Assembly (NCBI GenBank): GCA_040004125.1
Contig: JBDUBL010000001.1
Coordinates: forward strand, 3,850-67,849
Length of the DNA stretch: 64,000 nucleotides
From: Actinomycetota bacterium
GTDB lineage: Bacteria > Actinomycetota > UBA4738 > HRBIN12
Direction of reading: 5' to 3'
Part shown: piece by piece, positions 19,344-61,580 of the stretch
Position numbering within the stretch: the stretch's first letter is position 1
Layout: the number at the start of each line of letters is the position of its first letter
The notes under the pieces: model-generated
Told to the model about the DNA's origin: nothing
The model's database searches: none
Seen by the model: only the letters and a program-made list of their open reading frames with translations
Translations under genes and position numbers: made by a program

Positions 19344-22300
19344 CTAGCCTGCGGAGCCCGGGCTCGCGTGCCACAAGCGGCGCCCCGACGTGGCGGCCGT
19401 GGGCTGGATCGGGTCGCCCATCGCTTGGCGAAGGTGGCCATCGCGCCGGGCCTCCTGAAGGGCCACGAGATCCCAGACGTCTTCGGCGATCACGCTGACC
19501 CCTTGCTTGCCGGTGCGGCGTAGCTGTCCCCAGACCGCCATCGCGTAGGCATGGAACACCGTGCGCGCCACCTTGTGCTGCACCGACGGGAAAACGGTGA
19601 CCTCGATGGGCCCCGTGGCGTCATCGAGCGAGACGAAGATGATCCGTTGGCCGCTGCGCACCGCCGGAGTCTGCGAGGCGATCTTGACCCCGGCGACCAT
19701 GACCCACTCCCCTTGACGCTTGCGTGGCAGGTCGGCGGCCCGCGTGACGCCGAGATCCTGCAGGAGCGGCTCGTAGAAGCTGACGAGGTGACGCGTGGCG
19801 TCCATGCCGAAGACATCCAGCTCGGCGCGCACCACCTCGGCGTCGCTGTAGGCGGGAAAGAAGTGGCGCGGCGCGGCGGTCTCGGTGATGGTGAGCTGAT
19901 CGCCTTCGCGCGGCGCCGCGACCGTGATCGCCTCATACAGGTGGGAACGACGCCCCCCGGGCAGCGCATCGAACGCGCCGGCGTGCGCCAATGCCTCGGC
20001 AACCGGTCGCGACACCGTGGTGCGCCGCAGGAAATCCCCCACGTCGGCGAACGCACGCTCGGCACGTGCGATCAGGATCGAGCGGATGTCGGCCGCCGCG
20101 ATCCCGTGCACATCCTGCAGACCGATCCGGATCCCCAAGATGTCGTCGGCGGTCTCTTCCGTGACGTACTCGGGCTCGCTGCGATGGACATCGATCGGCA
20201 AGATCGGCACCCCGGCCCGCCGAGCGTCATCGAGCAGCAGACGCCGCGGATACATACCCGGATCATGGGTCAAGATCCCGGCCAGGAACTGCGCGCGGTA
20301 GTGGGTCTTGAGCCACGCCGAGCGGTAGGTGGGCACGGCGAACGCGGCCGCATGCGCCTTGCAGAAGCCGAAGCTCGCGAACTGCGAGACGTCGTCCCAG
20401 GTCTGTTCGGCCGCAGCCGGGTCGACGCCCCGGCCGATCGCGCGCGCCAGGAAGTCTGCGCGCAGCGCGGGCAGCATCGCGTCATCGTCCAGATGCCGGC
20501 GCACGTGATCGGCGTAGGTGAGGTCGTAACCGGCGAGCGCCGCGAGCGTGCGGATCACCTGTTCGTGAAACACGATCACCCCGAAGGTCTCCTGCAGCGC
20601 TGGACGCAGATCGGGGTGCGCGTAGGTCGGGCGTTCGAGCCCGGCGCGCCGAGCGATATAGGGGCGGATCATGTCGGACTTCACCGGGCCCGGGCGGAAC
20701 AACGAGATGTCGACGATCAGGTCCTCGAACCGTTCGGGCTGGAGCTTCTGGAGCAGCTCGCGCTGCCCCGGCGACTCGATCTGGAAACAACCGAGCGTGT
20801 CGGAGGCGCGGATCAGCTCGAACGTCGGCTCATCGTCGAGCGCGATCCGGTCGAGGTCGACCTTCTGGCCGGTGGTGCGGGCGATCTCGTCGATCGCGTG
20901 ACGCATCGACGAGAGCATGCGCACCCCCAGGATGTCGAGCTTGAGGTAGCCGAGCGCCTCGACGTCGTCCTTGTCGGCTTGGATCATGCGATGCCCGCCG
21001 GCGCTGCGCTCCAACGGCACCCGCTGCACCAGGTCGTGGCTGGCCAGCACGATGCCGCACGGGTGCAACGCGATGTGCCGCGGGAACCCGTCGAGCCGCT
21101 CGGCCACCCGGAAAAGCAGGTCGAGCTGGCGCATCGGCAGCTGGAGCCCCTGCAACTCGGGCAGGTGCTCGAGGCCCTCGCGCAGGTCGCGCGCCGAGAT
21201 GTGCGGGAAGGCCTTGGCGACGACACCGACCTCGACGTCGGGCAGACCCAGCGCCTTGCCGACCTCACGGACCGCCGAGCGCGCCCGATAGGTGTCGACC
21301 ATCGCGACGCACGCCGCCCGTTCATGGCCGTGTCGCGAAAGGATCATGTCGTAGACGTCCTCGCGGCGGGCGGACTCCACGTCGATGTCGACATCGGGCA
21401 GTCCGTCGCGCATCGGGTTCAAGAACCGCTCGAAAGAAAGATCGTGCCGAAGCGCATCGACGTCGGAGATGCCGGTCACCGAGCACACGAGCGATCCCGC
21501 GGCACTGCCGCGGCAGGCCGCGAAGATGCCCATCGTCTTGATGTCGGCCACGATGTCGGCCACGGTCAGGAAGTAGGCCGCGTACCCCATCTGCCGGATC
21601 ATCGAAAGTTCCAGATGCATGCGGGCGCGCAGACGTTCGTCGTCGCGCAGACCGCGTTCGTGGACCCCGCGCCAGCAACGCTCGGCGAGCACGGCGTCGG
21701 GGCTTCGGCCGCCCTGCGTCGGAAAATCGGGGAAATGCACCTGCGCGAGCCCCAGATCGAACGAGACGCGCTCGGTGATCGCCAGGGTTCGGTCGCAGAG
21801 CTGTGGCCGCTCGGCGAACAGCGCGCGCATCGCGTCGGACCCTTTGAGCCAGCCTTCGGCGTTGGTGCGCGTGATGTTGGACGACGCGATCGGCACGATG
21901 CGGCGCATGCACTCCAACGCGTCGGCCACGAACGCGTCCGCCTGCCGCAGGTAGCGCACGGGGTTGGTGGCGACCGCCGTAGCGTCGAGCCGGTCGGCGA
22001 AGCGCAGCATCGCGCGGATCTCGGTGTCGGAGCCGGCCTCGACGCGATGCTCGACGGCGATCACACAGCGCTCGGCGCCGAACGCCTCGCGGTAGGGCCC
22101 GGCCAGCGACGCGGCGGCATCGAGACGGCCGGCGGCCGCGAGACGTCCCGGGTGGGAGCGCGGTCCGAGCAGCACCGTCAGCCCGGCGGCGTGTGCGCAG
22201 ATCTGCTCGGTGGCGACCCAGGGATCGCCGCGCTCGCCGAGCAGGTGCGCATCGGTGAGCAACCGGCACATGTTCGCGTACCCGGTCGCATCTTCTGCCA

Positions 22301-36661: not shown

Positions 36662-37984
36662 TTACGCCGGCGCTGCCAGCACCGGAGCGAGGATATCGGT
36701 GAGCTGCGGCGAATCGGGGAGCATCTCGAGGTCGTAGCGCACCCGCACCGCGGGCTTGGAGATCGCGATCACGCTGCGCAGGTCGATCGGCGTACCGATC
36801 ACGACAACGTCGACATCGGCCGCATCGATGATGGCGGCCATCTCGGCCAGCTGTCCGTCCGAGTAGCCCATCGCCGGCAAGACGTGACCGACGTCGTACT
36901 TCTCGAATGTCTCCGCGATCGATCCGACCGCCCATGGGCGCGGGTCGACGATCTCGGCCGCCCCCATCCGCTGGGCGGCCACGACGCCCGCGCCGATCTT
37001 CATCTCGCCGTGTGTCAATGTCGGGCCGTCCTCGATCACCAGCACCCGCTTGCCGGCGATCGCGTCCGGGTCGTCGCAGGTCACGTTCGAATTGGCCTTG
37101 GCGATCGTCGCGGACGGGTTCACGTCGGCGATCGTCGCTTCCAGCTGGGCAACGTGCTCGGCCGTCGCCGAGTCGATCTTGTTGATCAACACGACATCGG
37201 CACCGCGCAGGTTGGTCTCGCCCGGGTAGTAGGTCAGCTCGTGGCCGACGCGAAGCGGGTCGACCAGCGTGATCCAGACGTCGGGCGTGTAGAACGGGAT
37301 ATCGTTGTTCCCGCCGTCCCACAACAACACGTCGCATTCGGCCTGTGCCTGCTCCAGGATCGCCCCGTAGTCAACACCCGCATAGATCACGGTGCCGCTC
37401 GTGATATGCGGCTCATATTCCTCGCGCTCCTCGATCGTGCACCGATGCAGGTCGAGGTCCGACAACGCCGCGAATCGCTGCACCGCCTGGGCGGCCAGGT
37501 CGCCGTATGGCATCGGGTGGCGCACCGCGACGACGCGCTTGCCGGCCTGCTTCAGGGCGCCCGCAACCGCGCGGGTCGTCTGGGACTTGCCGACACCCGT
37601 ACGAACGGCGGTGACCGCCACGGTCGGCACGGTCGCCTTGAGCATCGTTGCGTTGGGCCCGAGCAGAACGAAGTTCGCGCCAGCCGCCCCCACGATCGAA
37701 GCCTTGTGCATCACGTACTCATGCCGCACGTCGGAGTAGCTGAACACGACGTCGTCGACCTCGAGCTCACGGATCAACCGCACGAGCTCGGACTCGTCAT
37801 AGATCTGGATGCCGTCGGGGTACAGCGCTCCGGCAAGCGAGGCCGGGTAGCGCCGGTCGTTGATGAACGGGATCTGGGTCGCGGTGAACGCAACGACCGT
37901 CGAGGCGGCGTCGCCGCGATAGACGGTGTTGAAGTTGTGGAAGTCGCGCCCGGCGGCCCCCATGATCAAAACACGACGAGACAT
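36662..37984 (-). CDS. P-loop-containing protein of unknown function (DUF1611 / cyclic-2,3-diphosphoglycerate-synthetase-like), likely co-transcribed with arcC
   Basis: P-loop-like VRTGVGKSQTT. ~440 aa, conserved-looking throughout. It ends 27 nt before arcC. Confidence 0.55.
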   Translation of the reverse strand: MSRRVLIMGAAGRDFHNFNTVYRGDAASTVVAFTATQIPFINDRRYPASLAGALYPDGIQIYDESELVRLIRELEVDDVVFSYSDVRHEYVMHKASIVGAAGANFVLLGPNATMLKATVPTVAVTAVRTGVGKSQTTRAVAGALKQAGKRVVAVRHPMPYGDLAAQAVQRFAALSDLDLHRCTIEEREEYEPHITSGTVIYAGVDYGAILEQAQAECDVLLWDGGNNDIPFYTPDVWITLVDPLRVGHELTYYPGETNLRGADVVLINKIDSATAEHVAQLEATIADVNPSATIAKANSNVTCDDPDAIAGKRVLVIEDGPTLTHGEMKIGAGVVAAQRMGAAEIVDPRPWAVGSIAETFEKYDVGHVLPAMGYSDGQLAEMAAIIDAADVDVVVIGTPIDLRSVIAISKPAVRVRYDLEMLPDSPQLTDILAPVLAAPA

Positions 37985-38099
37985 AGCTCGGATCCTTTCC
38001 GCTCGAATGCTTCTGATGCGCGGAAGGCCCGGGCCGGATCACGCAAGCCCCGCTCTTCGGCCCGACTCTACCCGACGGGCGCGACCGGGGTCCGCCGGA

Positions 38100-39194
38100 T
38101 CAACGACACGTCAGGAGCTGCTCGTCCAGGAGCGTCCCGGACTCCGTCAGCAACGCGGTGCGAAGGCTGCCGGCCGCGGTGTCGGCCTCCATGCGCAGCA
38201 CGCCGAAGTGCTGCAGGTCGACGAACGCCGCCCGAGTGGGGGCGGGACCTGCGTACGACACGCCGGCGATCTCTCGGCCGCCGGCGCCCGCCACGATCTC
38301 GACGATCCCGTCGGGCTTGGCCCGTCCGCCGGTGCCGAGCGCGGGCATCCGCTCGTAGAGGTGATCGTGCCCGTTCACGACGAGGTCGGGCCGCTGGGCC
38401 GGCTTCGTGCGGTACAACGCCCGCCACACGGGATCGACATAGCCGATGTCCCCATGCCCCGCGTCGGACCATCGCGCCTGGTGCCACGCGACGATCGTGC
38501 ATGCCGCCGGCGGGTTCACTTGCGGGTCCGCGAGCGCCCGCTCGAGGAACGACGTGGTACGCGAGCCCGCCGAGCAGACCGCCGGATCGTGCTCGCACAC
38601 ACCCACATCGAGCATGATGACGGCCAGCGGATGAGCGGTCTGCGCGGCGAACGTCCGTGCGTAGTCCCCGACGCCGTCTGACAGCTCTCCCGCGAACGCC
38701 GCATCGCCGAAGTAGGACTCGAAGCCGCAGGCGTTGCGGCCCGCATGCTGGAACACGCAACCGCTCCCGGTGGGGTCGGGGTCATACCACTCGTGGTTGC
38801 CCGCGACCGGCAGCACCGCTGTGCCGGGCAGGGCACGGAGAGCGGCGCCCCACGTCATGTCGAACGATGCATAGTCCTGGGTGCGTCCCGACTCGTACTG
38901 CGTGTCGCCGAGCAGGAGCACGGCGACCGGAGCGCCCCCAGGCCCGCCGGCCACGAGCGACGCCGTCGTGGCCTGGTGACAACCGGTCGGGATCGCCGGG
39001 CTGCCGGGGGCACACGCGATGTCGCCGCTCGCGATCAGGACCATCGGGTTCCCGTGAGCGTCCGGCCCCGCCGTCGGCGCCGGCGTCGCGGTCGCCGCAG
39101 GGGCCGTCGTTACGGGGGGTGACGGGGTCTGGGTCGACTGCTCGTTCACCCGGCCGGTGCAGGCCGCCGACACGATCGCGAGCGCCACGATCAC
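38100..39194 (-). CDS. secreted/lipoprotein calcineurin-like metallophosphoesterase
   Basis: Lipobox-like AIVSAAC. GD...GNHE...GHDH motifs. The start is uncertain. The GTG at 39194 leaves a 27-nt gap to the upstream MBL gene, whereas the ATG at 39380 would overlap it. Confidence 0.65.
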   Translation of the reverse strand: MIVALAIVSAACTGRVNEQSTQTPSPPVTTAPAATATPAPTAGPDAHGNPMVLIASGDIACAPGSPAIPTGCHQATTASLVAGGPGGAPVAVLLLGDTQYESGRTQDYASFDMTWGAALRALPGTAVLPVAGNHEWYDPDPTGSGCVFQHAGRNACGFESYFGDAAFAGELSDGVGDYARTFAAQTAHPLAVIMLDVGVCEHDPAVCSAGSRTTSFLERALADPQVNPPAACTIVAWHQARWSDAGHGDIGYVDPVWRALYRTKPAQRPDLVVNGHDHLYERMPALGTGGRAKPDGIVEIVAGAGGREIAGVSYAGPAPTRAAFVDLQHFGVLRMEADTAAGSLRTALLTESGTLLDEQLLTCR

Positions 39195-39220
39195 GGAGCG
39201 CAGCTCGTGACGACCGCGAG

Positions 39221-40033
39221 TTAGACCGGGTCGCTCGTCCACCGACCCTCGTCGATCGACCCGAACGGGTGCGCGAAGTGCGTCACGCCGACGCGATACG
39301 CGTGGGTTTCCGCCCGCCACAGCAGGACACGACGCGACGCGACGCCCAGCAGCGCGTCTTCGTCGTGCTCGGAGAACCACATGCGTTCTGCGACCTGGAT
39401 CGGCTGGTGCAGCAGGTCCCCCGTCAGCAACAACCCGTCATCGCCGTCCACGACGAGCGCCGCGCGGTGCCCGGGCGTGTGTCCGGGCGCGTGGATCACG
39501 CGCACCCCTGACGCCACATCGTGATTGGTGTCGACCGCCCGCAGCACACCGAGCGATTCGAGGCGCTCGGCTGGCCGGACCGCGACGTAGGCGTTTTCGT
39601 GCGCCTCTTCGAAATGACGAAGATCGGCGGGATGCAAGTGGTAGGCGGCATTGGGGAACCGCGGTTCGAATTCGGCCGCCTCGATCCCGCCGGCGTGATC
39701 CGCGTGCAGATGTGTAAGCACGACATGGCCGACCGCGGCCAGATCCTCATCGCCCCATGCCTCCGCGTTCCAGTGCTCCCATGGGCGGTACGGCCCGAAG
39801 GGTCCGACCCCCGTGTCGACCACGACGACCCCGTCAGGCCCGTCGACGACGAACGCGTGCACGTGCCACGCCCACGCGTCCAGACCGTGGTAGCCCCACG
39901 GGTACCGTGCACGCTCCCGTGCCCAGTCGACCTGCACGCCCGGGAACTCCTCGGCGAGTGGCAGCGGTGCGAATCCCTCGCAGATGGTGCGGATCTCGAA
40001 CCGCCCGATATGGATCGGTGCCACGTGCGTCAT
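39221..40033 (-). CDS. MBL-fold metallo-hydrolase
   Basis: THLHADHAGG and HAPGHTPGH motifs. Confidence 0.8.
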   Translation of the reverse strand: MTHVAPIHIGRFEIRTICEGFAPLPLAEEFPGVQVDWARERARYPWGYHGLDAWAWHVHAFVVDGPDGVVVVDTGVGPFGPYRPWEHWNAEAWGDEDLAAVGHVVLTHLHADHAGGIEAAEFEPRFPNAAYHLHPADLRHFEEAHENAYVAVRPAERLESLGVLRAVDTNHDVASGVRVIHAPGHTPGHRAALVVDGDDGLLLTGDLLHQPIQVAERMWFSEHDEDALLGVASRRVLLWRAETHAYRVGVTHFAHPFGSIDEGRWTSDPV

Positions 40034-40044: not shown

Positions 40045-40635
40045 CTACCCCTTCAGGTCGCCCGGCTCATCCACGTCGAACACGGTGCGCCGTGCCGGGT
40101 CCAGCGCCGTCCACGTTGCCTCGTCGATCACCGCGATCCGCAGCCCGTCGAGCACGTCGCGGAGCCGACGCCTGCCCGCATGCAGCAGCGTATGGGTCAT
40201 ATCGGCCGCCGGCCACGTGCGCAGGACGCACGGCAAGGGTCGGGTCCGGCCGCCGTCGGCAAGCGCGACCGCATCGACCCCGGCCTCTTCCAGCACGCGG
40301 ACCATCTCGCTCAGCACGATCTGTTGCAGATCAGGCATATCGCCGGCGGCGACGATCACGATGTCGGACCGCACCGCCGCCATCAGCCCGGTGTGAAGCC
40401 CTGCGAGCGGGCCCTCGCCCTCGGTCGCGTCGTTCGCGGTACGCACGCCGGGCGGCAGCCCCGTGCCGTCCGCACCGGGCGCGAGCACGACGATCACCTC
40501 GTCGCAGACCGCCGCCAGCCGATGCACCGCGTGGTGCAACAGCGGCTGTCCGTGATAGTCGGCTACAAGCTTGTCGGTGCCGAATCGGGTCGAGCGACCG
40601 CCGGCAAGCACCAGCCCGCTAACGTTGGGCGGCAC
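40045..40635 (-). CDS. mobA: molybdenum cofactor guanylyltransferase MobA
   Basis: LVLAGGRSTRFGTDKL and DMP motifs. Overlaps the upstream Fe-S gene by 17 nt. Confidence 0.8.
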   Translation of the reverse strand: MPPNVSGLVLAGGRSTRFGTDKLVADYHGQPLLHHAVHRLAAVCDEVIVVLAPGADGTGLPPGVRTANDATEGEGPLAGLHTGLMAAVRSDIVIVAAGDMPDLQQIVLSEMVRVLEEAGVDAVALADGGRTRPLPCVLRTWPAADMTHTLLHAGRRRLRDVLDGLRIAVIDEATWTALDPARRTVFDVDEPGDLKG

Positions 40636-41578
40636 CGTCTCGGCGCTTCCGCCGCTGCACGAACTGGAACCCGAATCGGCCCTTCACACACAGATGCCCG
40701 TTCGTCACGACGTTGTCCGCGGGCGAGGTGACCTTGACTATCGAGTTGTCCTGAACGTGCAGCTCGAGCTCGCAGCCCACACCGCAATACGGACAGATCG
40801 TGTTCGTCACGCGTTGCGCGTCCTCGTCCCACGTGCCGGCTAAGCGCATGTCGTGTTCGCTGGTGAACATCAAGGCGCCGGTCGGACACACCCCGATGCA
40901 GTTGCCGCAATACACACAAGCGCTCGCATCGAGCGGCACGGCATATTCGGTCGAGATCCGGGCATCGAACCCGCGCCCGGCGACCGCGATCGCGAAGGTG
41001 AACTGCGCGTCGGTGCCGCAGGCCTCGACGCACTTGTAGCAGAGCACGCAACGCCCGTAGTCGCGCACGTACAGCTCGTTGTCGACCTTCACCGGCTGCG
41101 CGACCGTCTCGGCCGCCGCCGGGTTGGGCGCGTGGTGATGGCCCGGCTCGCGTCCGTCTCGCTCCCCAGTCGGCAAAGGGGTCATGCGCGCGCCGAATCG
41201 ATCCGGATCGGCGGCGTAGGCATCCTGCCAGCGGTGCCACTCGGGGCTCGCGAGCGACGTATCGACCGAGGACGCAAGGAACTCGATCACGAGTTTCCGC
41301 GAGCGACGCACCCGCTCGGTGTCGGTCGAGATCTTCATGCCCGCCTCCGCGGTTCGCGAGCACGCCGGCACGAGCACTCGCGAGCCTTCGACCTCGACCA
41401 CGCACACACGGCAGGCATTGATGGGGGTGAGGTTCTGCGCGTAGCACATCGTTGGGGTGTCGATGCCCTCGGCCGTACACGCGTCCAAGATCGTCGCGCC
41501 CTGCGGAACCCGCGCGGTGCGGCCATCGAGCTCGACGTCGATCAAGGTACGCGGCATCCCGAGCGGCACGGCGCTCAC
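40619..41578 (-). CDS. NuoG-like iron-sulfur subunit of formate dehydrogenase: 2Fe-2S, two 4Fe-4S ferredoxin motifs, plus the N-terminal 4Fe-4S cap of the molybdopterin (MopB) domain
   Basis: 2Fe-2S cysteines (CYAQNLTPINACRVC). Two CxxCxxCxxxCP motifs. Ends with CPYCGVGC...GHLCVKGRFGF, homologous to FdhF residues ~8-50. ATGA overlap with the NuoE/F gene. Confidence 0.8.
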   Translation of the reverse strand: MSAVPLGMPRTLIDVELDGRTARVPQGATILDACTAEGIDTPTMCYAQNLTPINACRVCVVEVEGSRVLVPACSRTAEAGMKISTDTERVRRSRKLVIEFLASSVDTSLASPEWHRWQDAYAADPDRFGARMTPLPTGERDGREPGHHHAPNPAAAETVAQPVKVDNELYVRDYGRCVLCYKCVEACGTDAQFTFAIAVAGRGFDARISTEYAVPLDASACVYCGNCIGVCPTGALMFTSEHDMRLAGTWDEDAQRVTNTICPYCGVGCELELHVQDNSIVKVTSPADNVVTNGHLCVKGRFGFQFVQRRKRRDGAAQR

Positions 41579-43395
41579 GCGGGCACCTCCCCGCCGAACA
41601 ACCCGAAGGTCGTGATCGCCGATTGCACGGCGCTTGCCGCGGTCTGCCCCAGGCCGCAGATGGACGCGTCGCGCATCACGGCGGCCACGTCCTCGAGCAG
41701 CGCGAGCTCATCGGGGGTGGAGCCCACCGTGCGACCGGCGACCAGCCGGTGAAGCGCCTCCTCCTGACGCACGGTCCCGACTCGACATGGCACGCACTGA
41801 CCACAGGACTCGTCGCGGAAGAACCGCGCGATCCGCAGACACAGGTCGACCAGATCGACGCCCTCGTCGAGCACCATGATCACCCCGGAGCCTAGGGTGT
41901 AGCCGCCGGTCCGCGCGTCCTCGAAGGTCAGCCGCACATCCAGTCGGTCGGGGCCGAGGAAGCCGCCGGCCGCGCCGCCCAGCAAGACGGCTTTGATGCC
42001 GGCGCCGTCGCGCGGGCCACCGGCAAGCGTGATCGCTTCGCGCAACGTGATTCCGTGCTCGGCCTCATAGACTCCGGGGTGCTCGATGTGACCCGACAGG
42101 CAGAAGAGCCGGGTGCCGGTCGATCCCTCGGTGCCGAGGGCCGCGTACGCGTCGGCCCCGAGCTCCATGATCGGGAGCACGTTGATCAGCGTCTCGACGT
42201 TGTTGATCGCCGTCGGTCGCCCGAAGACCCCGTGTGTGACGGGGAAGGGCGGCTTGTTCCGCGGCTCACCGCGCTTGCCCTCGATCGAGTTGAACAGCGA
42301 CGTCTCCTCGCCGCAGATGTAGGCGCCGGCGCCCCGGCGCAGCTCGATATCGAACGCGAAACCGCCGTGCATCACGTCGGGACCGAGGAGGGCTGCGTCA
42401 CGGGCATCCTCGATCGCGGCGAGCAGGTGCTTCGTTGCACGCGGGTACTCGCCACGGATGTACAGGTAGCCGGTCTCGGCCCCGGTGGCGAACCCCGCGA
42501 TCGTGAGCGCTTCGATGACCGCGAACGGATCGTGTTCCATGATCACACGGTCCTTGAAGGTGCCCGGCTCGGATTCGTCGGCGTTGCAGACCACGTGCTT
42601 GGGTCCCGGGGGCTGATCGGCGACCGCTCGCCACTTCACGCCGGTGGGGAATGCAGCACCACCTCGGCCGAGCAGCCTCGCATCGGTGACCTGTTGGATC
42701 ACGGCGTCTGGGCCCAGCTCGATCGCGCGCGCGAGTCCCGCGTACCCACCGTGCGCGCGGTAGTCGTGCAGCGATGCGGGATCGACCGAACCGACGCGTC
42801 GCAGCAGACGCTCGCCGCCGTGACGGGGGGCAAGCGCGGGAGGCGCCATCAGCGTGCGGTCGCCACGCACGGAGCCAACGATGTGCTCGGCGTCGGCGGG
42901 CGCGACCACGTGCGAGACCGCGCCGGCGCCGGCCTCCTGGAAGAACACCGCGGGCGCGGCGTCGCACATGCCGAGACACGGGCTCCGCACGACCCGAGCG
43001 TCGCCGGCAAGCTCAGCCTCCACGCGCGCCGCCATCGCGTCGCCGCCACGGATCCGGCAGGCCAGGTCGTCACAGACGTGCACGACCGTCGTCGGCTGCG
43101 GGGCGACGCTGAACATCGCGTAGAACGTCGCGACGCCGTAGGCCTCGGCGGGTGGCACGACCAGGCGCTCGCATGCGTAGCTGAGACCGCCCTCGCTGAT
43201 CCACCCGACGCGCGCCTGAAGCGCATGCAGTACGGGCAACAGCAAGGTGCGACGCTCTTCGGGGGCGCGCGACACGCGGAGATCGCGCTCCGTGCGCTCC
43301 CCGCCATCCCAGCCGGTCTCCGGCGCGCCAAGCACCGTATCGACCGCCGAACGCTCCTCGGCGGTTGGCTCCGCGGTCATCAGGTGCAGGTCCAC
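41575..43395 (-). CDS. NuoE-NuoF fusion, the NAD(H)-binding diaphorase subunit of formate dehydrogenase (FdsG/FdsB-like)
   Basis: N-terminal NuoE-like 2Fe-2S region (CDDLACRIRGG...CLGMCDAAP). NuoF FMN/NAD motifs (GRGGAAFPTGVKW, CNADESEPGTFKDR). C-terminal 4Fe-4S cysteines (ESCGQCVPCR...C). Confidence 0.85.
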   Translation of the reverse strand: MDLHLMTAEPTAEERSAVDTVLGAPETGWDGGERTERDLRVSRAPEERRTLLLPVLHALQARVGWISEGGLSYACERLVVPPAEAYGVATFYAMFSVAPQPTTVVHVCDDLACRIRGGDAMAARVEAELAGDARVVRSPCLGMCDAAPAVFFQEAGAGAVSHVVAPADAEHIVGSVRGDRTLMAPPALAPRHGGERLLRRVGSVDPASLHDYRAHGGYAGLARAIELGPDAVIQQVTDARLLGRGGAAFPTGVKWRAVADQPPGPKHVVCNADESEPGTFKDRVIMEHDPFAVIEALTIAGFATGAETGYLYIRGEYPRATKHLLAAIEDARDAALLGPDVMHGGFAFDIELRRGAGAYICGEETSLFNSIEGKRGEPRNKPPFPVTHGVFGRPTAINNVETLINVLPIMELGADAYAALGTEGSTGTRLFCLSGHIEHPGVYEAEHGITLREAITLAGGPRDGAGIKAVLLGGAAGGFLGPDRLDVRLTFEDARTGGYTLGSGVIMVLDEGVDLVDLCLRIARFFRDESCGQCVPCRVGTVRQEEALHRLVAGRTVGSTPDELALLEDVAAVMRDASICGLGQTAASAVQSAITTFGLFGGEVPA

Positions 43396-43405: not shown

Positions 43406-45325
43406 CTACCGTTCCGCCGCGACCGCGAGCTTCTCCACCCGGATCGCCGTGGCCTTGAACTCCGAGGTTCCGGACTTCGGGTCAGAGACGTCGTTCGTGA
43501 TCCGGTTGGTCGCGACCTGCTCCGGGAAGTGGAAGGTCATGAACGCGAGCCCCGCCCGCAGGGCGGTCGTGACGTGGACCGGGGCCTCGATCGCCCCACG
43601 GCGCGAGATGATCCGCACGACCTCGCCCTCGCCGACGTCCAGCGTGCGCGCGTCCTCGGGGCACAGATCGAGCGACTCCCCTCGGTGCAATGGCGAGGAG
43701 AACGCGTTGGTCTGCACACCGGTGTTATAGGACTCCAGCCGGCGTCCGGTCGTGAGGCGCATCGGGAATTCCTCGGTCAAGGTATCGGCCGGTGCCACGT
43801 CCTCCACCACCGAGAAGGGGGCCTTGCGCCCCTGCGCGTCGGGGTCCTCAAACGCCCACAGGCGCGCGTGCAGGAACTGCGCGCCATCGGGAAACTGCTC
43901 GTTGCAGGGCCATTGGATGCCACCGAGCTCCTCGATGCGCGCCCACGACATCAAGGTGTGCATGGGTGACAGCGCTCGGAGCTCGTCCCAGGCCTGTTCG
44001 GATGTCACGTCGCCCCAGTCGTTGCCCAGACGCGCGGCGAGCTGCGCGATGATCCACATATCGTCGCGCGCCTCACCGGGCGGCTCGAGCGCTTTGCGCA
44101 CGCGTTGGACCCGACGCTCGGAGTTCGTCACGGTGCCATCGGTCTCGAACGCGCCGTTCGCGGCCGGGAACACGACGTCGGCGAGCTCGGCGGTCTTAGT
44201 GAGAAAGATATCCTGCACGATCAGGGTGTCGAGCCCTTGGAGCAGGTGCACCGCGTGATCCTGGTCGGCCTCCGACGTGGCGGGGTTCTCGCCGATGCAG
44301 TACACGGCCGTGAGTTCGCCGCGGTCCATCGCCTCGAACATCTCGGTGAGGTGCCACCCGGTGCGCGGCTCGATCGGCACACCCCACGCCGCCTCGAACC
44401 GCGCGCGAGCGGCGGCATCGCTCTCGATGTCCTGGAACCCCGGCAGCTTGTTCGGGATCGCGCCCATGTCGCCGCCGCCCTGCACGTTGTTCTGGCCGCG
44501 GAGCGGGTTCAGACCGCTGCCGTAGCGACCCACATGACCGGTGAGCAGTCCGAGGTTGATCAACGACAGCACGTTGTCGACCGCGTTGCGGTGCTCGGTG
44601 ATACCGAGCGTCCAGCAGATCATGGCGTTCTCTGCCTCGGCCAATCCGTGTGCGAGATCTCGGATGACGTCGCTCGGAACGCCCGTGACCTCGGCGCCCC
44701 GCTCCAGTGTCCATTCCTCGACGCTCGAGGCGTACTCGGGGAAGTGCAGGGTCGCGCCTTCGATGAAGTCGGTCCGTGCGAGCCCCGCATGGATGATCTC
44801 GCGAGCGATCGTATTGGACAGACCCACGTCCGTGCCCACGTCGATGCCCAACCAGAGATCCGCGAATTCGGCCGTCTCGGTACGCCGCGGATCCACGACG
44901 ATCAGCCGGGCCTCACGCTGCATCGCCTTGAGGACATGGTGGAAGAAGATCGGATGCGCGGCGCGCGCATTCGACCCCCACAGCACGATGAGGTCCGTGT
45001 GCTCGACCTCTTCGTACGAGCTGGTACCGCCCCCGGCACCGAACACGGTCGCCAGACCGACGACCGAAGGTGCGTGTCAGGTGCGGTTGCAGCTATCGAT
45101 GTTGTTCGTTCGAAGGACTTGGCGAGCGAACTTCCCTGCGATGAAGTTCATCTCGTTCGTGGCCTTCGAGCAGCTGAAGATCCCTGCCCCCCAGCCGGGG
45201 TTCCGCTCCATCGCGCGACGCAGCCCCCCGGCGGCCCGGTCAAGGGCCTCATCCCAGGTGGCGGCACGCAGCGCTCCGTTCTCACGGACCATCGGCTCGG
45301 TCAGCCGGGTCATCGATGCCGACAT
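43406..45325 (-). CDS. fdhA: formate dehydrogenase molybdopterin catalytic subunit, selenocysteine-containing (in-frame TGA at 45077-45079). It lacks its own N-terminal 4Fe-4S cap
   Basis: Track ORFs 45077..45361 and 43406..45046 are in the same frame and separated only by a TGA. The context ...KFARQVLRTNNIDSCNRT-U-HAPSVVGL aligns with E. coli FdhF ...[27 protein letters not shown]. Downstream MopB domains are intact. Start at ATG 45325 with GGAGGAAGGAG 9 nt upstream. Confidence 0.75.
45035..45076 (-). promoter_or_regulatory. bacterial SECIS-like hairpin immediately 3' of the UGA
   Basis: mRNA reads UGA-CAC-GCA-CCU-UCG-GUC-GUC-GGU-CUG-GCG-ACC. CGGUCGUCGGUCUGGCGACCG folds into a ~9-bp stem with the apical GGUCUG at +22..+27 from the U of UGA, the same motif and spacing as the E. 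coli fdhF SECIS. Confidence 0.55.
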
Positions 45326-45421
45326 CGATCGGCGCTCCTTCCTCCGGCGCGAAACTCGCACCGGACGCCTCGATTGTAGGACCGCCGGGACTCGGTTCGG
45401 GAACCGGCGGTTGACCCGCGT

Positions 45422-48661: not shown

Positions 48662-48767
48662 CCTGTGGTCAGAGGCCCTGCCGGACCGATTCTCTTGCGC
48701 GCGAGGCCTTGCGCTAAGGTCTCATGCGCCGTACACCATCCCACCTGCGAAGGAGTCGATCGCCACC

Positions 48768-50438
48768 ATGAAGTCCGGCCTCGAGATCGCCCAGGAAGCC
48801 ATCCTTCGCCCGATCGCCGACGTGGCCGCCGATGCCGGCATCCACCCCGACGAGCTCAAACCCTATGGCTCGACCCGAGCCAAGGTGTCCTTGTCGATCC
48901 TCGAGCGCCTGGCGGATCGAAGGGACGGGAAGCTCATCATCACGACCGCGATCACCCCGACGAAGGCCGGCGAAGGAAAGACGACCACCTCGGTGTCGCT
49001 CACCCAGGGCCTGGGGGCGATCGGCAAGCAGGTCGTCTTGGCCCTTCGCGAGCCGAGCATGGGCCCGGTGTTCGGGATCAAGGGCGGCGGGACCGGGGGT
49101 GGCTACGCGCAGGTCGTGCCGATGGAGGAGATCAACCTGCACTTCAACGGCGACTTCCACGCCATCACCGCCGCGCACAACCTCTTGTCCGCCGCACTGG
49201 ACGCCTCGATCTACCACGGCGATCCCCTCGGCATCGATCCGCAGTCGATCACCTGGCCGCGGACCCTCGACGTGAACGACCGCGAGTTGCGCAACACGGT
49301 GGTCGGCCTTGGCGGCAAGGCCCACGGCATCCCCCGTCAGGAGGGGTTCGTGATCACGGCGGCCTCCGAGATCATGGCGATCCTGGCGTTGGCGAGCGAT
49401 CTGCACGACCTTCGCGGCCGGCTCGGCCGTATCATCGTCGCCGCCACCTACGACGGCGCCCCGGTGACCGCCGAGGACCTTCGCGTCGCGGGCGCGATGA
49501 CCGTGATCATGCGCGATGCGATCGAGCCGAACCTCGTACAGACGCTCGAGCATCAACCCGTGCTGCTGCACGCGGGGCCGTTCGGCAATATCGCGCATGC
49601 GAACAACTCGATCATCGAGGATCGGATCGCCCTCAAACTCGCCGACTACGTCGTGACCGAAGCGGGCTTCGGAAGCGATCTCGGATTCCAGAAGTTCTGC
49701 GACATCGTGTGCCGCTTCGGCGGGTTCGTCCCGAGCGCCGGGGTGCTCGTCACCACCGTGCGGGCCACCAAATCTCACGGCGGGATGCCGTTCGCCGATC
49801 TCGGCAACGAGGATCTCGACGCGCTCAGCCGCGGGATCGACAACCTGACGGCCCACGTCGCTATCCTTCGCGAGTACGGCCTGCCGTGCGTCGTGTCCAT
49901 CAACAACTTCCCCGACGACACCGACGCCGAGATCGAGCTGATCCGCAGACTGGCGGTCGATGCCGGCGCTGAGACCGTCGTCGTGAACCGCGGGTTCGCC
50001 GAGGGTGGCCGGGGCGCCATCGAGCTGGCGGAAGCCGTGGTGACGGCCTGCGAGCGGCCGAACACCTTCCATCAGCTCACACCGCCGGACACGCCGCTGC
50101 GGGTGCAGATCGACACCATCGCGACGAAGCTCTACGGCGCCGAGGGCGTGGACTATCTGCCGCAGGCCGAGAAGGACCTCGCGCGCATGGACCAGCTCGG
50201 GTTCGGCACGGTACCGGTGTGCATGGCCAAGACCCACTTGTCCCTCAGCCACGATCCGCTGCTGCTGGATCGCCCAACCGGGTTCCGCCTGCCCGTACGC
50301 AGCGTGGTGCCGAGCGCGGGCGCCGGGTTCGTCGTCGCGCTGTGCGGCGACATGCAGCGGATGCCTGGGCTGGGGAAGACGCCGAACTACATGGGCGTGG
50401 ACATCGACGCCGACGGCACGACGACGGGGCTGTTCTGA
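48768..50438 (+). CDS. fhs: formate--tetrahydrofolate ligase
   Basis: TPTKAGEGKTTTSVSL and GPVFGIKGGGTGGGYAQV motifs. Full length (556 aa). Confidence 0.9.
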   Translation: MKSGLEIAQEAILRPIADVAADAGIHPDELKPYGSTRAKVSLSILERLADRRDGKLIITTAITPTKAGEGKTTTSVSLTQGLGAIGKQVVLALREPSMGPVFGIKGGGTGGGYAQVVPMEEINLHFNGDFHAITAAHNLLSAALDASIYHGDPLGIDPQSITWPRTLDVNDRELRNTVVGLGGKAHGIPRQEGFVITAASEIMAILALASDLHDLRGRLGRIIVAATYDGAPVTAEDLRVAGAMTVIMRDAIEPNLVQTLEHQPVLLHAGPFGNIAHANNSIIEDRIALKLADYVVTEAGFGSDLGFQKFCDIVCRFGGFVPSAGVLVTTVRATKSHGGMPFADLGNEDLDALSRGIDNLTAHVAILREYGLPCVVSINNFPDDTDAEIELIRRLAVDAGAETVVVNRGFAEGGRGAIELAEAVVTACERPNTFHQLTPPDTPLRVQIDTIATKLYGAEGVDYLPQAEKDLARMDQLGFGTVPVCMAKTHLSLSHDPLLLDRPTGFRLPVRSVVPSAGAGFVVALCGDMQRMPGLGKTPNYMGVDIDADGTTTGLF

Positions 50439-50442
50439 CCCG

Positions 50443-50856
50443 CTAGGCAACATCATCGTCAGCGGGCATGACGCAGAACTCGTTGCCCTCTGGGTCAAGC
50501 ATCACGCACCACACGCCCCCGTCGCCCTCGGCCCAGTTGTGGATCGAGGCGCCGATCCCCTCGAGCCGTTCCACCTCGGCCTCGAGGTCATCGTCGGCGA
50601 CCACGTCCAGATGCACGCGGTTCTTCGACATCTTGCCCTCCGGCACCTCGGTGAAAAACAGCACGGGCAGCGCCGTGCCCTCCGGCGGCTCGACCATCAC
50701 CGAGGGATCCTCCTCGGGGTCCGTGATGCCCTTGGCCGCCAGGCGCGTCAGCTCGACCTCGTCGTAGGGAGCGATCGTCCACCCTAACGTGGCCGCCCAG
50801 AATCGAGCCAACGGGGCCGCGTCGCGGCAGTCGAAGACGATCGCGTCGATCCGCAC
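50443..50856 (-). CDS. VOC (glyoxalase/bleomycin-resistance) family protein
   Basis: Fold-level match to the small VOC domain. Low sequence specificity. Confidence 0.6.
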   Translation of the reverse strand: MRIDAIVFDCRDAAPLARFWAATLGWTIAPYDEVELTRLAAKGITDPEEDPSVMVEPPEGTALPVLFFTEVPEGKMSKNRVHLDVVADDDLEAEVERLEGIGASIHNWAEGDGGVWCVMLDPEGNEFCVMPADDDVA

Positions 50857-50907
50857 GCAGGCAGCCTGGCGCGACGCGACGCCGAGCGCAAGCCCGCCCG
50901 GTGTTGA

Positions 50908-51687
50908 TCAGACGTGCAGCGCGATCATGAACGCCTCGCTGACATCGCGCAGGATCGACTGAGCACGATGCCGCAGGGAGTTCGCGGAGTCGGTGAGCTC
51001 GTGCTGGCGCGTTTTGTCCAGGAACGTGATCGCGTTGATATCGACGTTGGCCAGCGCCGACAGGGTCGCCGCGTGCAGCGATGTCGCCGCGCTCAGCGCG
51101 TCGGAGGCCGCGTTCGGGTTGCCGTTGGCCAGCGTCTCCTCGGCCAAGCTCATCAGGTACACGGAGCGCCGGGCCACTTCCAGCGGGATGTCCGCCGCGC
51201 GCTCCAATGCCTTCTGGAGTGTGAACCCCCATGTGTGCTGCTCCTCGGGGGTCGTCTTGGGCAGCTTGTAGGCCGCCATGACGGCCTGGTAGGCCTCGGC
51301 GTCCCTGTCCGCGAGGCCGAGCAGCGCGTAGCGTTCGTCGTCGCACTCGTCGGCGATCGTGCGCATGCGGTCGGCGACGGGTTCGAAACCCTTCTTCTTC
51401 AGAGTCAAGCGCGCGACCATCGCGATCAGGGAGGCGCCGGCGGCGGCCGAGACGGCGGCCCAGGCGCCGCCACCGGGCGTCGGCGAGTCCGACGCGAGGT
51501 CTTCCAGATAGGCGCCCACCCGAGATCCCGCCGTCGGCATGTCATCGATCGGCACCTTGCTGGGCGCCGAGGTCGTCGCCGGGCCGCCGCTGGCCCAGGT
51601 CCCCCCGGAGGTCTCCGCGGACATATCGGGGATCGGCGCCGGCGCGAGTTCCTGCTTCCGCTCGGGCGACATCCACTGGTCACTCAT
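50908..51687 (-). CDS. cyclodeaminase/cyclohydrolase family protein (FTCD C-terminal-like / FchA-like)
   Basis: GGGAWAAVSAAAGASLIAMVARLT and the following helical bundle match PF04961. Low-complexity N-terminal linker. ATGA overlap with the formimidoyltransferase gene. Confidence 0.7.
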   Translation of the reverse strand: MSDQWMSPERKQELAPAPIPDMSAETSGGTWASGGPATTSAPSKVPIDDMPTAGSRVGAYLEDLASDSPTPGGGAWAAVSAAAGASLIAMVARLTLKKKGFEPVADRMRTIADECDDERYALLGLADRDAEAYQAVMAAYKLPKTTPEEQHTWGFTLQKALERAADIPLEVARRSVYLMSLAEETLANGNPNAASDALSAATSLHAATLSALANVDINAITFLDKTRQHELTDSANSLRHRAQSILRDVSEAFMIALHV

Positions 51688-52586
51688 GACGCCTCCTCGA
51701 TCAGCCGCTCCAACACCTGCGTCGTTCGGTCGAACCCCTGAAGCCGCACCTGCTCGGCGGCCTCCTCGGGCAACGCCGCCTCCGGCACGAGACCCACGAT
51801 CTCGGAGTCGGTGACCTCTCCCCCACGTGCCTCAGCCTGTGCGACCACCGCATCGTATGCCGTTCGCACGCTCGTGACCTCGAAGTCGACCAAGTTCATC
51901 GAGACGGTTACACAACCCCGCTCCGGCACGTGGAATCCGATCGCCCGAACGGCCGGCAATCCACCGCCGGATGCGCGGATCGTCCGTGCGATGTCCTTGG
52001 CCGCGCTCTCGTCCACCCCGATGAGGTAGACGTTGAACGCCACGAGCGGGGAGCGTGCCCCGACCGCGGTCGCGCCGGCCCGACCGATCTGGTGCGGTCC
52101 GAAGTCGGGCAGGCGCTCCCCTCGGGACACCGCCTCGCGCAGCCCCTCGTACTCACCGCGGCGCACGTCGGCAAGCGACACGCGGTCTGGCGTGCGCGCC
52201 GCGCGGTCATACAGGTAGACGGGCAGATCCAACTCGGCCGCGAGGGTCTGGCCGACCTCGACGGCAAGCGAGACGCATTCCTGCATCGAGACATCCCGCA
52301 CGGGCATGAAGGGGATCACGTCGGCGGCGCCCATCCGGGGATGCCCGCCGTGGTGCTGCTCCATGTCGATCAGTGCGACGGCCACGCGTGTTCCGGCGAT
52401 CGCAGCTCGGCGCACCGCCTCGCGACTGCCGAGGACGGTGGCGTCGAGGCGATGATGATCGGGGTCGGCTTGGCGGTACACGAGATGCGCACCCGGAACG
52501 GCCAGGGCATCGCAGATCGCATCCATCACGTCCGCGCGCCGACCCTCGGAGAAGTTCGGCACGACACCGTAGATGGGTTCGTTCAC
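51684..52586 (-). CDS. ftcD: glutamate formimidoyltransferase
   Basis: VPNFSEGR motif and the FT N/C subdomains. Confidence 0.8.
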   Translation of the reverse strand: MNEPIYGVVPNFSEGRRADVMDAICDALAVPGAHLVYRQADPDHHRLDATVLGSREAVRRAAIAGTRVAVALIDMEQHHGGHPRMGAADVIPFMPVRDVSMQECVSLAVEVGQTLAAELDLPVYLYDRAARTPDRVSLADVRRGEYEGLREAVSRGERLPDFGPHQIGRAGATAVGARSPLVAFNVYLIGVDESAAKDIARTIRASGGGLPAVRAIGFHVPERGCVTVSMNLVDFEVTSVRTAYDAVVAQAEARGGEVTDSEIVGLVPEAALPEEAAEQVRLQGFDRTTQVLERLIEEAS

Positions 52587-52642
52587 GACCGACAGGATAG
52601 TGCCAGGGTCGGCGCCCGCCGACCCTGGGGACCCGCCCGACC

Positions 52643-53722
52643 TCAGGTCCGGGGGGTCTGCTTCTGTGGATCGAGGATCGACAGGGGCGCCACCGTTGCC
52701 ACCGCGCCGCCGACCTCGACCTTAGTCCCGTCGGTCGCGACCGCAGCGTCCAAGATGGCGAGCCCGATCGAGCCCACGCGCGGGCTCTCCGCGGGCGAGG
52801 TGACCACCCCGACCTCGGCGCCGTCCTTGGACACGACGGTTCCAGCCTCGGGCGCCGCGCCCTCGAATCGCAGGGTCTTGAACCGCTTCGGCGGGTTGGT
52901 GCCATAGGCGGCCAGGGCCTCTGCGCCCACGCACTCCGTGTCGGTCTTGATGAAGCGATCCATCGACAGGTCCCAGGGCGAGCGCTCGCCCGGGTCGTAG
53001 TCCATCGCGATGATGATCAAACCGACCTCGATGCGAGCCAAGTCGATCGCGGTCAACCCGAACGGGGTCGCGCCGGCGGCAAGAAGCGCGTCCCAGACCA
53101 CCTGTGCGTCAGCGGGGTCCAGCACGAGCTCATACCCGTGTTCGCCGCTGAACCCCGTACGCAAGACGTGCGCTGCGATACCGGCCACCGTCGTGGACTT
53201 CGGCCAGAACCGGAAGTATGAGAGATCGCCGAGATCACGCTCGGTCAGCGGCTGGAGCGTGGCCTGCGAGGTCGGCCCCTGCACGGCGATCATGGCGAGA
53301 TCCAGCGTCTTGTGCACGATCGAGGCGTCGAGGCCCTGCGCCGTCTCACGGAACCAGTCCTCGATCCCCGCGGAGTTGAGCGTGATCCAGAAGCGATCGT
53401 CGGCGAACTTGTACACGTTGCCCTCGTCGATCATCAGCCCGTCGGCGTTCACGAAGGCGCCGTAGCGCACCGAGCCCTCCGCCATACCCGCGAGGGTGTT
53501 CGTGAAGCGGCGCTGGATCAGTCCGGCGGCATCGGGGCCGGTCACCTCGTATTTGCAGGTCGAGAACAGATCCCAGATGCCCGTCGCGGTGCGCAGCGCC
53601 TCGTACTCGGCCATCGGGTCGCCGCCCTCGTGCATGTTCCAAGGGAACCCGTCTTCCCAGACGATGTCGGCGCCGTGGGCAACATGCCAGTCGTGCAGCG
53701 GCGAGCGTGCGTCCTCGGTCAT
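52643..53722 (-). CDS. aminomethyltransferase (GcvT) family folate-binding protein
   Basis: GcvT fold motifs. Start at the internal ATG (MTEDARSP) with GGAAGGAG 7 nt upstream. Confidence 0.75.
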   Translation of the reverse strand: MTEDARSPLHDWHVAHGADIVWEDGFPWNMHEGGDPMAEYEALRTATGIWDLFSTCKYEVTGPDAAGLIQRRFTNTLAGMAEGSVRYGAFVNADGLMIDEGNVYKFADDRFWITLNSAGIEDWFRETAQGLDASIVHKTLDLAMIAVQGPTSQATLQPLTERDLGDLSYFRFWPKSTTVAGIAAHVLRTGFSGEHGYELVLDPADAQVVWDALLAAGATPFGLTAIDLARIEVGLIIIAMDYDPGERSPWDLSMDRFIKTDTECVGAEALAAYGTNPPKRFKTLRFEGAAPEAGTVVSKDGAEVGVVTSPAESPRVGSIGLAILDAAVATDGTKVEVGGAVATVAPLSILDPQKQTPRT

Positions 53723-53839
53723 GGATCGCTCCTTCCTGCCGCTGCCTCGGTAGCGCGGCACCGTTCGTTCGGATCGTCGATGGATCGGCCCCCCGAAGGT
53801 ACCGGGGATCGGGCGCGCTGTGGTAACCGGCCCGCGCCG

Positions 53840-60669: not shown

Positions 60670-60695
60670 GGTGCCGATAATGGCCCACGAGGGGG

Positions 60696-61580
60696 ATGTC
60701 CGACCACGCTGCCTTCGCGCACGACCTCGCCGCGCTGCTCCAGGGGCGCGGGTTCGTCGACCTGTCCGACTGGCGCAAGGTCCGACTCGACGGCGCGGAC
60801 GCCATCGGCTGGCTGCACGATCTTCTGACGGCCGATATCGCCGGGCTGTCGCCGGGCGCCTCGTGTCGATCGTTGTTGTTGACCCCCACCGGTCGGATCC
60901 GCGCCGACGTACAGGTGCTTCGACGCGACCACGATGTCGTGCTCGTGCAATCGCCCGATCAGCCCGAGCACGTCGGACTACTGCTGTCCCCGTACATCTT
61001 GTCCTCCGACGTGGTCCTCGAAGATGCCAGCGCGAGTCTCGATCTGCTCGCGATCCCCGGCGCGGGCGCCTCGGTCGTCGGGCTGCCGGGCACGATGCCG
61101 TCGGTTCTTGGACCCGGCGTCGATCTGCTCGCGGCCGCCGGGAAATCGGCTTGGCGTGCGGGCGACGCGCTTGTCAAGGCCGACCTGGTCGAGGTCAGTC
61201 ACGAGGCCGCCGACGCGTGGCGGATCCTCAACGGCATCCCCCGGATGGGCGCGGATTTCATGCAGGGATCGCTGCCTGCCGAAGCCGGCCTCGATGCGAC
61301 GATCGACAGCACGAAGGGATGCTTCCTCGGTCAGGAGTCCATCGCGAGGATCCGCAACCTTGGCCACCCGCCGCACGTGCTTCGCCACGTGCAAAGCGAT
61401 GTGCCGTTCGTCGCCGGTGCGCCGGTGCTCCTCGACGGTGCCGTGGTCGGTGAGGTGACGAGTTCTGCGCCCCTGCCGGATGCCTGCGTCGGTTTCGTCC
61501 GCGTGGTGTGGGCCGCGGCGACTCCCCGGTTGACCGACAGCCAAGGGCGTCCGCTGCAGGATGTCCCGGCCGTGGGCTAG
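60696..61580 (+). CDS. YgfZ/GcvT-like folate-binding protein
   Basis: GcvT-like fold with the KGCFLGQE motif characteristic of YgfZ. Confidence 0.7.
   Translation: MSDHAAFAHDLAALLQGRGFVDLSDWRKVRLDGADAIGWLHDLLTADIAGLSPGASCRSLLLTPTGRIRADVQVLRRDHDVVLVQSPDQPEHVGLLLSPYILSSDVVLEDASASLDLLAIPGAGASVVGLPGTMPSVLGPGVDLLAAAGKSAWRAGDALVKADLVEVSHEAADAWRILNGIPRMGADFMQGSLPAEAGLDATIDSTKGCFLGQESIARIRNLGHPPHVLRHVQSDVPFVAGAPVLLDGAVVGEVTSSAPLPDACVGFVRVVWAAATPRLTDSQGRPLQDVPAVG

Follow-up and report, generated by a model that had tools for sequence, protein, structure and literature searches.

A formate dehydrogenase gene split by an in-frame UGA that is probably read as selenocysteine, from an Actinomycetota bacterium

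In a 64,000-nucleotide stretch of DNA from an Actinomycetota bacterium (assembly GCA_040004125.1, contig JBDUBL010000001.1, positions 3,850 to 67,849; hereafter, the window), a formate dehydrogenase (FDH) gene that looks broken is one intact gene and not two fragments, and comparison with its relatives makes it very likely that the UGA at its codon 83 is genuinely recoded to selenocysteine (Sec). A preliminary description of this region had likewise preferred genuine recoding to a pseudogene or a sequencing error, and its view is sustained by three lines of evidence: the presence of TGA at this codon in every one of 80 orthologous loci, purifying selection on the codons upstream of it, and a covarying hairpin that is lost in those relatives that carry TGC instead.

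The two open reading frames (ORFs) called at this locus, 45077..45361 (94 residues) and 43406..45046 (546 residues), both lie on the minus strand and share a single frame. Translation of 45361..43406 confirmed the initial observation that only a TGA separates them: the sole internal stop is the TGA at 45079..45077, situated within ...TNNIDSCNRT*HAPSVVGLATVF.... The probable start codon, ATG 45325..45323, opens a coding sequence (CDS) of 639 codons in which the TGA is codon 83 and the final stop is TAG 43408..43406; given this start, the span first proposed for the gene, 43406..45325, is the full CDS. A purine-rich GGAGGAAGGAG (45345..45335) is located 9 nucleotides (nt) 5' of ATG 45325, and a similar purine-rich motif precedes the aligned and conserved ATG in five relatives (loci L001, L002, L003, L007 and L009). 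The gene and its elements, with the evidence for each, are as follows:

43406..45325, minus strand: predicted CDS of the FDH catalytic subunit, binding molybdenum or tungsten (Mo/W) with bis-pyranopterin guanine dinucleotide (bisPGD), 639 codons including Sec83 (translation, Pfam, TIGR01591, alignments)
45077..45079, minus strand: UGA codon 83, very likely read as Sec, at the Mo/W ligand position (aligns with FdhF Sec140; TGA in 80/80 loci)
45036..45073, minus strand: putative hairpin of the selenocysteine insertion sequence (SECIS) type, inside the CDS (minimum free energy fold, pair counts, third-position invariance, covariance model)
45335..45345, minus strand: Shine-Dalgarno-like GGAGGAAGGAG (read from the sequence; similar motifs in five relatives)

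Alignment with the fdhF gene of E. coli K-12, which was fetched and translated and has its own in-frame stop at codon 140, places the TGA on the catalytic Sec/Cys position of FdhF, as had been claimed. By BLASTP, residues 7-634 of the catalytic subunit match residues 61-689 of E. coli FdhF at 36% identity, and homology to FDHs runs unbroken on either side of the TGA. U83, H84 and R276 align onto FdhF Sec140, His141 and Arg333, such that both the catalytic His and the catalytic Arg are conserved and the active-site motif U-H...R-G-Q is present (U83-H84 and R276-G-Q, corresponding to U140-H141 and R333-G-Q in E. coli); this is the motif of class I FDHs (PMC8808070). Because TGA is also the usual stop codon of the window, ending 26 of its 35 likely genes, the codon has not been reassigned genome-wide.

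To place the TGA among relatives, we scanned GTDB species representatives (one genome per species), which returned at least 593 matches, and kept the best 80 loci (65-82% amino acid identity). These derive mostly from soil metagenome-assembled genomes (MAGs) labelled Actinomycetota, Actinomycetes, Thermoleophilia, Gaiellales or Acidimicrobiia, with a few binned as Vicinamibacteria, Chloroflexota, Chthonomonadia or Spirochaetia. All 80 loci have TGA at the aligned codon (79 recognized by motif search, and L035 confirmed by eye). The preliminary description had pointed to orthologues with TGC or TGT as the evidence that would speak for a Cys-type enzyme or a pseudogene; when orthologues were examined, TGC occurred in two Cys-type forms, L084 and L086, alongside the 80 loci with TGA. 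These same two, from Kutzneria buriramensis (P0105, L084) and from a JGI contig (P0012, L086), are the only full-length proteins among the 120 best matches in the protein database. The other 118 are ORF calls of 526-569 residues that cover 82-86% of the query and are cut at the same TGA, a mis-annotation seen systematically in the JGI, ENA and NCBI MAG records of this clade.

The 82 codons upstream of the TGA are conserved much like the remainder (consensus fraction 0.77, versus 0.80 downstream of the TGA). Compared with five relatives, this segment has 18-24 synonymous and 7-15 non-synonymous differences, with the synonymous count higher in all five; with respect to L001, the figures are 23 and 7. 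Such a pattern indicates that codons 1-82 are subject to purifying selection.

Eight of the loci (L033, L036, L038, L039, L050, L062, L067 and L071), which have 65-71% identity and share both the TGA and the SECIS core, belong to MAGs labelled Vicinamibacteria/Acidobacteriota, Chthonomonadia, Chloroflexota, Spirochaetia or 'Marinacidobacterales'. The occurrence of the operon in these eight MAGs with labels other than Actinomycetota suggests either horizontal spread or binning errors.

In the minimum free energy fold of the RNA 3' of the UGA, the loop GGUCU (45058..45054) caps an 8-bp upper stem (45066..45059 / 45053..45046), below which five further pairs form a lower stem (45073..45069 / 45040..45036). 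Counting from the U of the UGA, GGUCUG occupies +22..+27, and the GGUCU loop +22..+26, in the window gene and in E. coli fdhF alike. The region had been described as having a hairpin of about 9 bp with GGUCUG at the E. coli offset; the offset is exact, and the stem length is close to what we find, the stem being divided into upper and lower parts of 8 and 5 bp.

Since the peptide that follows the Sec position (HAPSVVGLATVF) is near-invariant, only synonymous positions are informative about the hairpin. In an 80-sequence alignment, 90.7% of the cells in the proposed pairs are paired, as opposed to 28-67% when the 3' partners are slid by 1-3 columns, and the covariation score was reached by none of 500 column shuffles. 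The pair 21-33, formed by the third bases of Val88 and Ala92, takes the form C-G in 42 distinct sequences and G-C in another 22, and no sequence leaves it unpaired. Of 170 conserved four-fold codons, just two lack any third-base variation in 81 sequences: Val89 (GUC), which provides the loop-closing pair, and Gly90, which lies in the loop and is GGU in 81/81, whereas the T fraction at other conserved Gly codons (42 in the set) is at most 0.37. Codons 87-96 have the lowest synonymous entropy of any ten consecutive codons in the gene, and the SECIS core is identical in all loci. In the TGC orthologues L084 and L086, by comparison, the loop Gly is GGC, 4-6 pairs are broken and the hairpin is not formed. 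A covariance model built from the clade scored 79.6 bits on the window and 30.7 and 25.3 bits on the two Cys-type sites, and had no other match within the window. Collectively, these comparative data show the hairpin to be more than a product of chance, with selection at the RNA level acting on the segment 3' of the UGA.

On this evidence, we propose that translation begins at ATG 45325 and that the hairpin in the approximately 45 nt past the UGA, with its apical loop 21 nt beyond that codon, acts as a bacterial SECIS, which would bind SelB carrying Sec-tRNA(Sec). Selenocysteine would then be inserted at UGA 83 and translation would proceed to the TAG at 43406, yielding a protein in which Sec83 is predicted to ligate the metal while His84 and Arg276 complete the FDH active site.

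Several observations weigh against the insertion of Sec at this codon. The folding energy of the hairpin is insignificant by itself (z = -1.25, with 20 of 200 shuffles folding as well), and because such an energy is unremarkable at 69% G+C, the window sequence alone cannot prove a SECIS. Rfam gave no matches at gathering threshold in the 64-kb window: when the search was applied to a 151-nt region, the best families were SECIS_3 and SECIS_2, which matched over their whole length with the UGA codons in register, but their scores were sub-threshold (18.7 bits for a gathering score of 63, and 17.1 bits for one of 70). The clade covariance model also did not retrieve the E. coli fdhF element, and hence the earlier label of an 'fdhF-type' SECIS fits the register and the loop but not the overall sequence. 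No selA, selB, selD or tRNA-Sec was detected in the 64-kb window by tRNA scan, Rfam or tblastn with E. coli SelA, SelB and SelD, in agreement with what had been noted from the sequence, and the window yielded no tRNA of any kind. In relatives, sel genes lie within 10 kb of the FDH gene in just two of the 80 loci (L040 and L050). Finally, none of the window ORFs scanned matched FdhD (PF02634), whose gene could lie elsewhere in the genome. FdhD is present beside the L086 orthologue, and the region downstream of the L040 operon contains an ORF judged, by eye only, to be FdhD-like.

The search for sel genes in relatives covered each of the 80 loci and 10 kb on either side. In L040 (Gaiellales), selA and selB are situated 8-10 kb downstream of the FDH gene (18250..21050), and this selA is canonical (PF03841 + PF12390); in L050 (a Chloroflexota bin), selA, tRNA-Sec(UCA) and selD are directly upstream of the FDH gene (1..1750). 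ARAGORN recovered one tRNA-Sec over the 80 loci, namely that of L050, and a 'tRNA-???' that it called in L057 was dropped because it had no Rfam support. For the closest relatives (L001-L032), the Sec machinery must lie elsewhere than near the FDH gene. A protein-database search with the Gaiellales SelA of L040 showed SelA to be abundant in related soil metagenomes. From the intact and selected gene, together with the universal TGA in its clade, we infer that the source genome also encodes the Sec machinery. Among bacterial selenoproteins, the FDH alpha subunit is the most widespread, with 1276 genes across 822 organisms, and Actinobacteria have been listed both as donors and as recipients of the Sec trait (PMC5029168). 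About 40% of 244 mycobacterial genomes contain selABCD and a single Sec-FDH, the annotation of which fails owing to the use of UGA as the chief stop codon of Actinobacteria (PMC13449736).

One alternative, that this is a pseudogene or that an assembly or sequencing error has turned a Cys codon (TGC/TGT) into a nonsense codon, leaving a gene that is dead or miscalled, draws support from the existence of TGC orthologues in Kutzneria (L084) and in L086 and from the lack of Sec machinery genes in the window. However, TGA is present in 80 of 80 independent orthologous loci, and this alternative does not account for two flanks that are intact and under purifying selection or for a covarying hairpin confined to the TGA forms; we consider it highly improbable and close to refuted. 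Another alternative is that the locus makes two products, as automated callers have it in 118 of the 120 closest database records: a peptide of 82 residues that stops at the TGA, and a protein of 546 residues initiated at GTG 45046, which is a possible start codon. But the 10 codons from the TGA to this GTG (HAPSVVGLAT) keep the frame, hardly vary and include the one for the catalytic His, and the GTG itself sits in the hairpin stem, with no Shine-Dalgarno sequence upstream. A protein begun at 45046 would, in addition, be deprived of the metal ligand, of His84 and of some 90 Mo-domain residues that can be aligned with FdhF and FdsA, so that two separate products are barely credible. Taken together, the conserved TGA, the selected flanks and the ordinary use of TGA as a stop are features that neither a pseudogene, nor a sequencing error, nor two independent genes can explain.

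It is also conceivable that the UGA is recoded to something other than Sec, either to Cys or through low-level read-through by a near-cognate tRNA. A tRNA(Sec)-like tRNA-Cys(UCA) that works with a SelB-like factor is one such case in the literature. The window does not tell which amino acid enters, a SelB-like factor would need the hairpin as well, and the Sec machinery of the source genome is itself presumed, all of which would suit this alternative. Yet where recoding genes do adjoin the orthologues they are those for Sec, with canonical selA and selB near that of L040 and selA, tRNA-Sec(UCA) and selD beside that of L050, and the SECIS core does not differ between any of the loci. Recoding of the other kind is rare, and for Cys at this position there is already a TGC solution in relatives, which makes it very unlikely here.

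The protein belongs to an operon in which three successive genes, for the catalytic, diaphorase and Fe-S subunits, keep the same order in essentially every locus long enough to judge and also in the Cys-type loci. The remaining genes of the operon are:

41575..43395, minus strand: diaphorase subunit, 606 residues, a fusion of a NuoE-like [2Fe-2S] part and a NuoF-like part for flavin mononucleotide (FMN), NADH and [4Fe-4S] (PF01257, PF01512, PF10531, PF10589)
40619..41578, minus strand: Fe-S subunit, 319 residues, the N-terminal third of an FdsA-type alpha subunit (PF13510, PF00037/PF12838, PF04879)
40045..40635, minus strand: MobA-like molybdenum cofactor guanylyltransferase (PF12804, 1.4e-32; NCBIfam MobA models below their cut-offs)

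The catalytic ORF contains the molybdopterin oxidoreductase domain (PF00384, 3e-66) and the molybdopterin dinucleotide-binding domain (PF01568, 7.7e-24), but the proximal [4Fe-4S] domain (PF04879) was not found in it, nor was any other Fe-S binding domain. It aligns to residues 307-931 of Rhodobacter capsulatus FdsA and starts near residue ~60 of FdhF. The NCBIfam model TIGR01591, for catalytic subunits of the FdhF/FdsA branch, behaves accordingly: its positions 50-672 match the catalytic ORF with 615 bits, which alone is below the equivalog cut-off of 666.25, and its positions 1-53 match the C-terminus of the Fe-S subunit with 55.8 bits. The NCBIfam models formate_DH_Act and TIGR01553 match the catalytic protein weakly. 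The diaphorase gene, which starts 10 nt past the FDH stop and is the next gene after the FDH gene in nearly all loci, matches the NCBIfam models for NuoF and for NuoE / FDH gamma, and residues 44-597 of its product align with the beta subunit of the tungsten FDH of Methylorubrum extorquens (7e5z_B) as well as with Cupriavidus necator FdsB (6vw7_B). The Fe-S gene begins at a GTG that overlaps the diaphorase stop (GTGA). In its product, which corresponds to the NuoG-like N-terminal Fe-S extension of an alpha subunit, a [2Fe-2S] domain is accompanied by two [4Fe-4S] motifs of the ferredoxin type and, at the C-terminus, by a CPYCGVGC...C domain (PF04879), the [4Fe-4S] domain that ordinarily precedes the catalytic domain on the same chain. 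Its alignments cover residues 25-308 of R. capsulatus FdsA and residues 6-53 of E. coli FdhF, the latter including Cys8, 11, 15 and 42. The MobA-like gene overlaps the end of the Fe-S gene, occupies the same place in closer relatives, and probably closes the operon.

By its domain content, then, the complex appears to be an NAD-linked enzyme of the FdsABG/Fdh1AB type, with the alpha subunit split and the gene order permuted, and not a monomeric FdhF. The preliminary description, which called the product an FdhF formate dehydrogenase, was correct in recognizing an FDH catalytic subunit; its FdhF-like monomer gives way to part of a split FdsA-type, three-gene, NAD-linked complex. The alpha subunit is divided exactly at the border of the proximal [4Fe-4S] domain with the Mo/W domain, which leaves the metal-pterin subunit without a cluster of its own. 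Because Cys forms, including that of Kutzneria, are also split, the division is not an adaptation to Sec decoding. Tiling of the subunits onto the solved structures of FdsABG and Fdh1AB, together with their domains, suggests the path of the electrons: those from formate would leave the catalytic subunit for the proximal [4Fe-4S] cluster, located in the C-terminal part of the distinct Fe-S subunit, and then travel via the remaining Fe-S clusters to the NuoE/NuoF subunit, where NAD+ would be reduced at the FMN, with the reverse route serving CO2 reduction. The formate:NAD+ activity, the choice of Mo or W and the electron acceptor are likewise predictions from sequence. No fdsD or fdsC was seen in the window, and a limited literature search found no description of a split and permuted FdsA arrangement.

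Genes of folate one-carbon (C1) metabolism occur 3-8 kb from the operon, and include formate-tetrahydrofolate ligase (FTHFS), formiminotransferase, cyclodeaminase and two ORFs of the GcvT-like aminomethyltransferase family:

~48700..50438 (plus strand), 50908..52721 (minus strand), 52643..53839 (minus strand) and 60681..61580 (plus strand): folate C1 neighbourhood ORFs

These neighbours fit a role of the enzyme in formate and C1 turnover, and FTHFS, GcvT and FdhD adjoin the operon in the Cys-type L086 too. Around the operon, the composition profile is free of GC anomalies and gives no sign of a recent island. Within this neighbourhood, the FTCD_C (cyclodeaminase) ORF at 50908..51831 and a glyoxalase-like ORF at 50443..50907, both on the minus strand, share a frame with a single TGA between them. 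This pair, joined at 50910, came up in a scan of the window for further gene pairs with an in-frame TGA, and was set aside as it looks like two adjacent genes and not like recoding; the scan produced no other credible selenoprotein candidate. Downstream of the operon (36662..39437, minus strand) are ORFs of 445 and 458 residues with marginal Pfam matches (Metallophos, 8.5e-4; cobW, 4.8e-5) and no NCBIfam match. Elsewhere in the window, the minus strand at 1506..11709 and 11831..12322 holds a division and cell-wall cluster (mraZ, a MraW-family methyltransferase, a penicillin-binding protein transpeptidase, two Mur ligases and FtsW), together with an ORF with an HNH-endonuclease domain just upstream of mraZ.

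The immediate consequence of reading the UGA as Sec is a corrected annotation, in which one selenoprotein of 639 residues replaces two fragments, and 118 of the 120 nearest entries in the database would need the same correction. It further implies that the source organism, along with many related soil Actinomycetota, needs selenium and the Sec machinery for its formate metabolism. Nothing in this overturns the current understanding of Sec decoding, but the gene offers a clean natural case of a SECIS that is constrained within a highly conserved coding sequence and for which matched Cys-type controls exist. The split alpha subunit, which puts the proximal cluster and the Mo/W centre on different polypeptides, provides a useful natural variant for work on electron transfer between subunits in FDHs, enzymes that interest biotechnology as reducers of CO2. 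Less familiar are the branch and its size (cytoplasmic, NAD-linked, and with at least 80 species-level lineages that would all use Sec and are nearly all mis-called), as well as the split of the alpha subunit. We tentatively suggest, as a possibility that we rate below even, that these loci represent a large and largely unrecognized clade of selenium-dependent, NAD-linked, split-alpha FDHs in soil bacteria, whose architecture is undescribed in the literature searched. The clade would extend over no fewer than 80 species-level lineages, most of them uncultured Actinomycetota, and some of its copies sit in bins assigned to Acidobacteriota, Chloroflexota and other groups. Should this be true, selenium use and formate oxidation by soil Actinomycetota have been systematically under-counted, because ORF callers cut nearly every copy.

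With E. coli FdhF the window enzyme has in common the catalytic domains, the motif ...NN(I/V)D.C.R.-U-H.PSV.GL and the conserved His and Arg. FdhF, however, is a single polypeptide with its own [4Fe-4S] domain (Cys8, 11, 15 and 42), a domain that the window places on another protein, and it feeds hydrogenase 3, whereas the window enzyme sits with a NAD module of the NuoE/NuoF type. The two SECIS elements are similarly alike in register and loop while differing in the sequences of their stems. A closer counterpart of the whole complex is FdsABG of R. capsulatus and C. necator (PDB 6tg9/6tga, 6vw7): the window Fe-S and catalytic subunits tile FdsA 25-308 and 307-931, FdsB is matched by the NuoF-like part of the diaphorase, and the cofactor complement is alike by domain content. 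It differs in that FdsA is one chain of 958 residues with a Cys ligand, where the window divides it between two genes, the order being permuted to catalytic, diaphorase, Fe-S, and has a probable Sec, and in that the counterparts of FdsG and FdsB are fused in the window protein. The alpha subunit of M. extorquens Fdh1 also uses Cys and not Sec. This tungsten enzyme, Fdh1AB (PDB 7e5z, 7vw6), has a beta subunit that is a NuoE-NuoF fusion, as in the window, and an alpha subunit that aligns with both window halves but is unsplit (989-995 residues).

The Cys-type orthologues (L084, on Kutzneria buriramensis QUNO01000002.1, and L086, on the JGI contig) are 65-68% identical, have their three genes in the order of the window operon and likewise split the alpha subunit, and depart from it in their TGC, their GGC loop codon and their disrupted hairpin; they are annotated generically as 'molybdopterin oxidoreductase family protein'. 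The mycobacterial Sec-FDH resembles the window enzyme in being encoded by a high-GC actinobacterium and in having a UGA that annotation routinely misses, and is the sole selenoprotein of the genomes that carry it, with selABCD adjacent (PMC13449736). It is of the fdhA/fdoG type ('alpha subunit precursor / FDH-O major subunit') and thus represents another FDH branch, and its sel genes are close to the FDH gene, whereas none are within the window here. The preliminary description had held that Sec usage is uncommon in high-GC Actinobacteria, a rarity that was overstated (PMC5029168, PMC13449736), Sec being the rule in the present clade: a Sec-FDH in a high-GC actinobacterium is expected biology, already documented in Actinobacteria.

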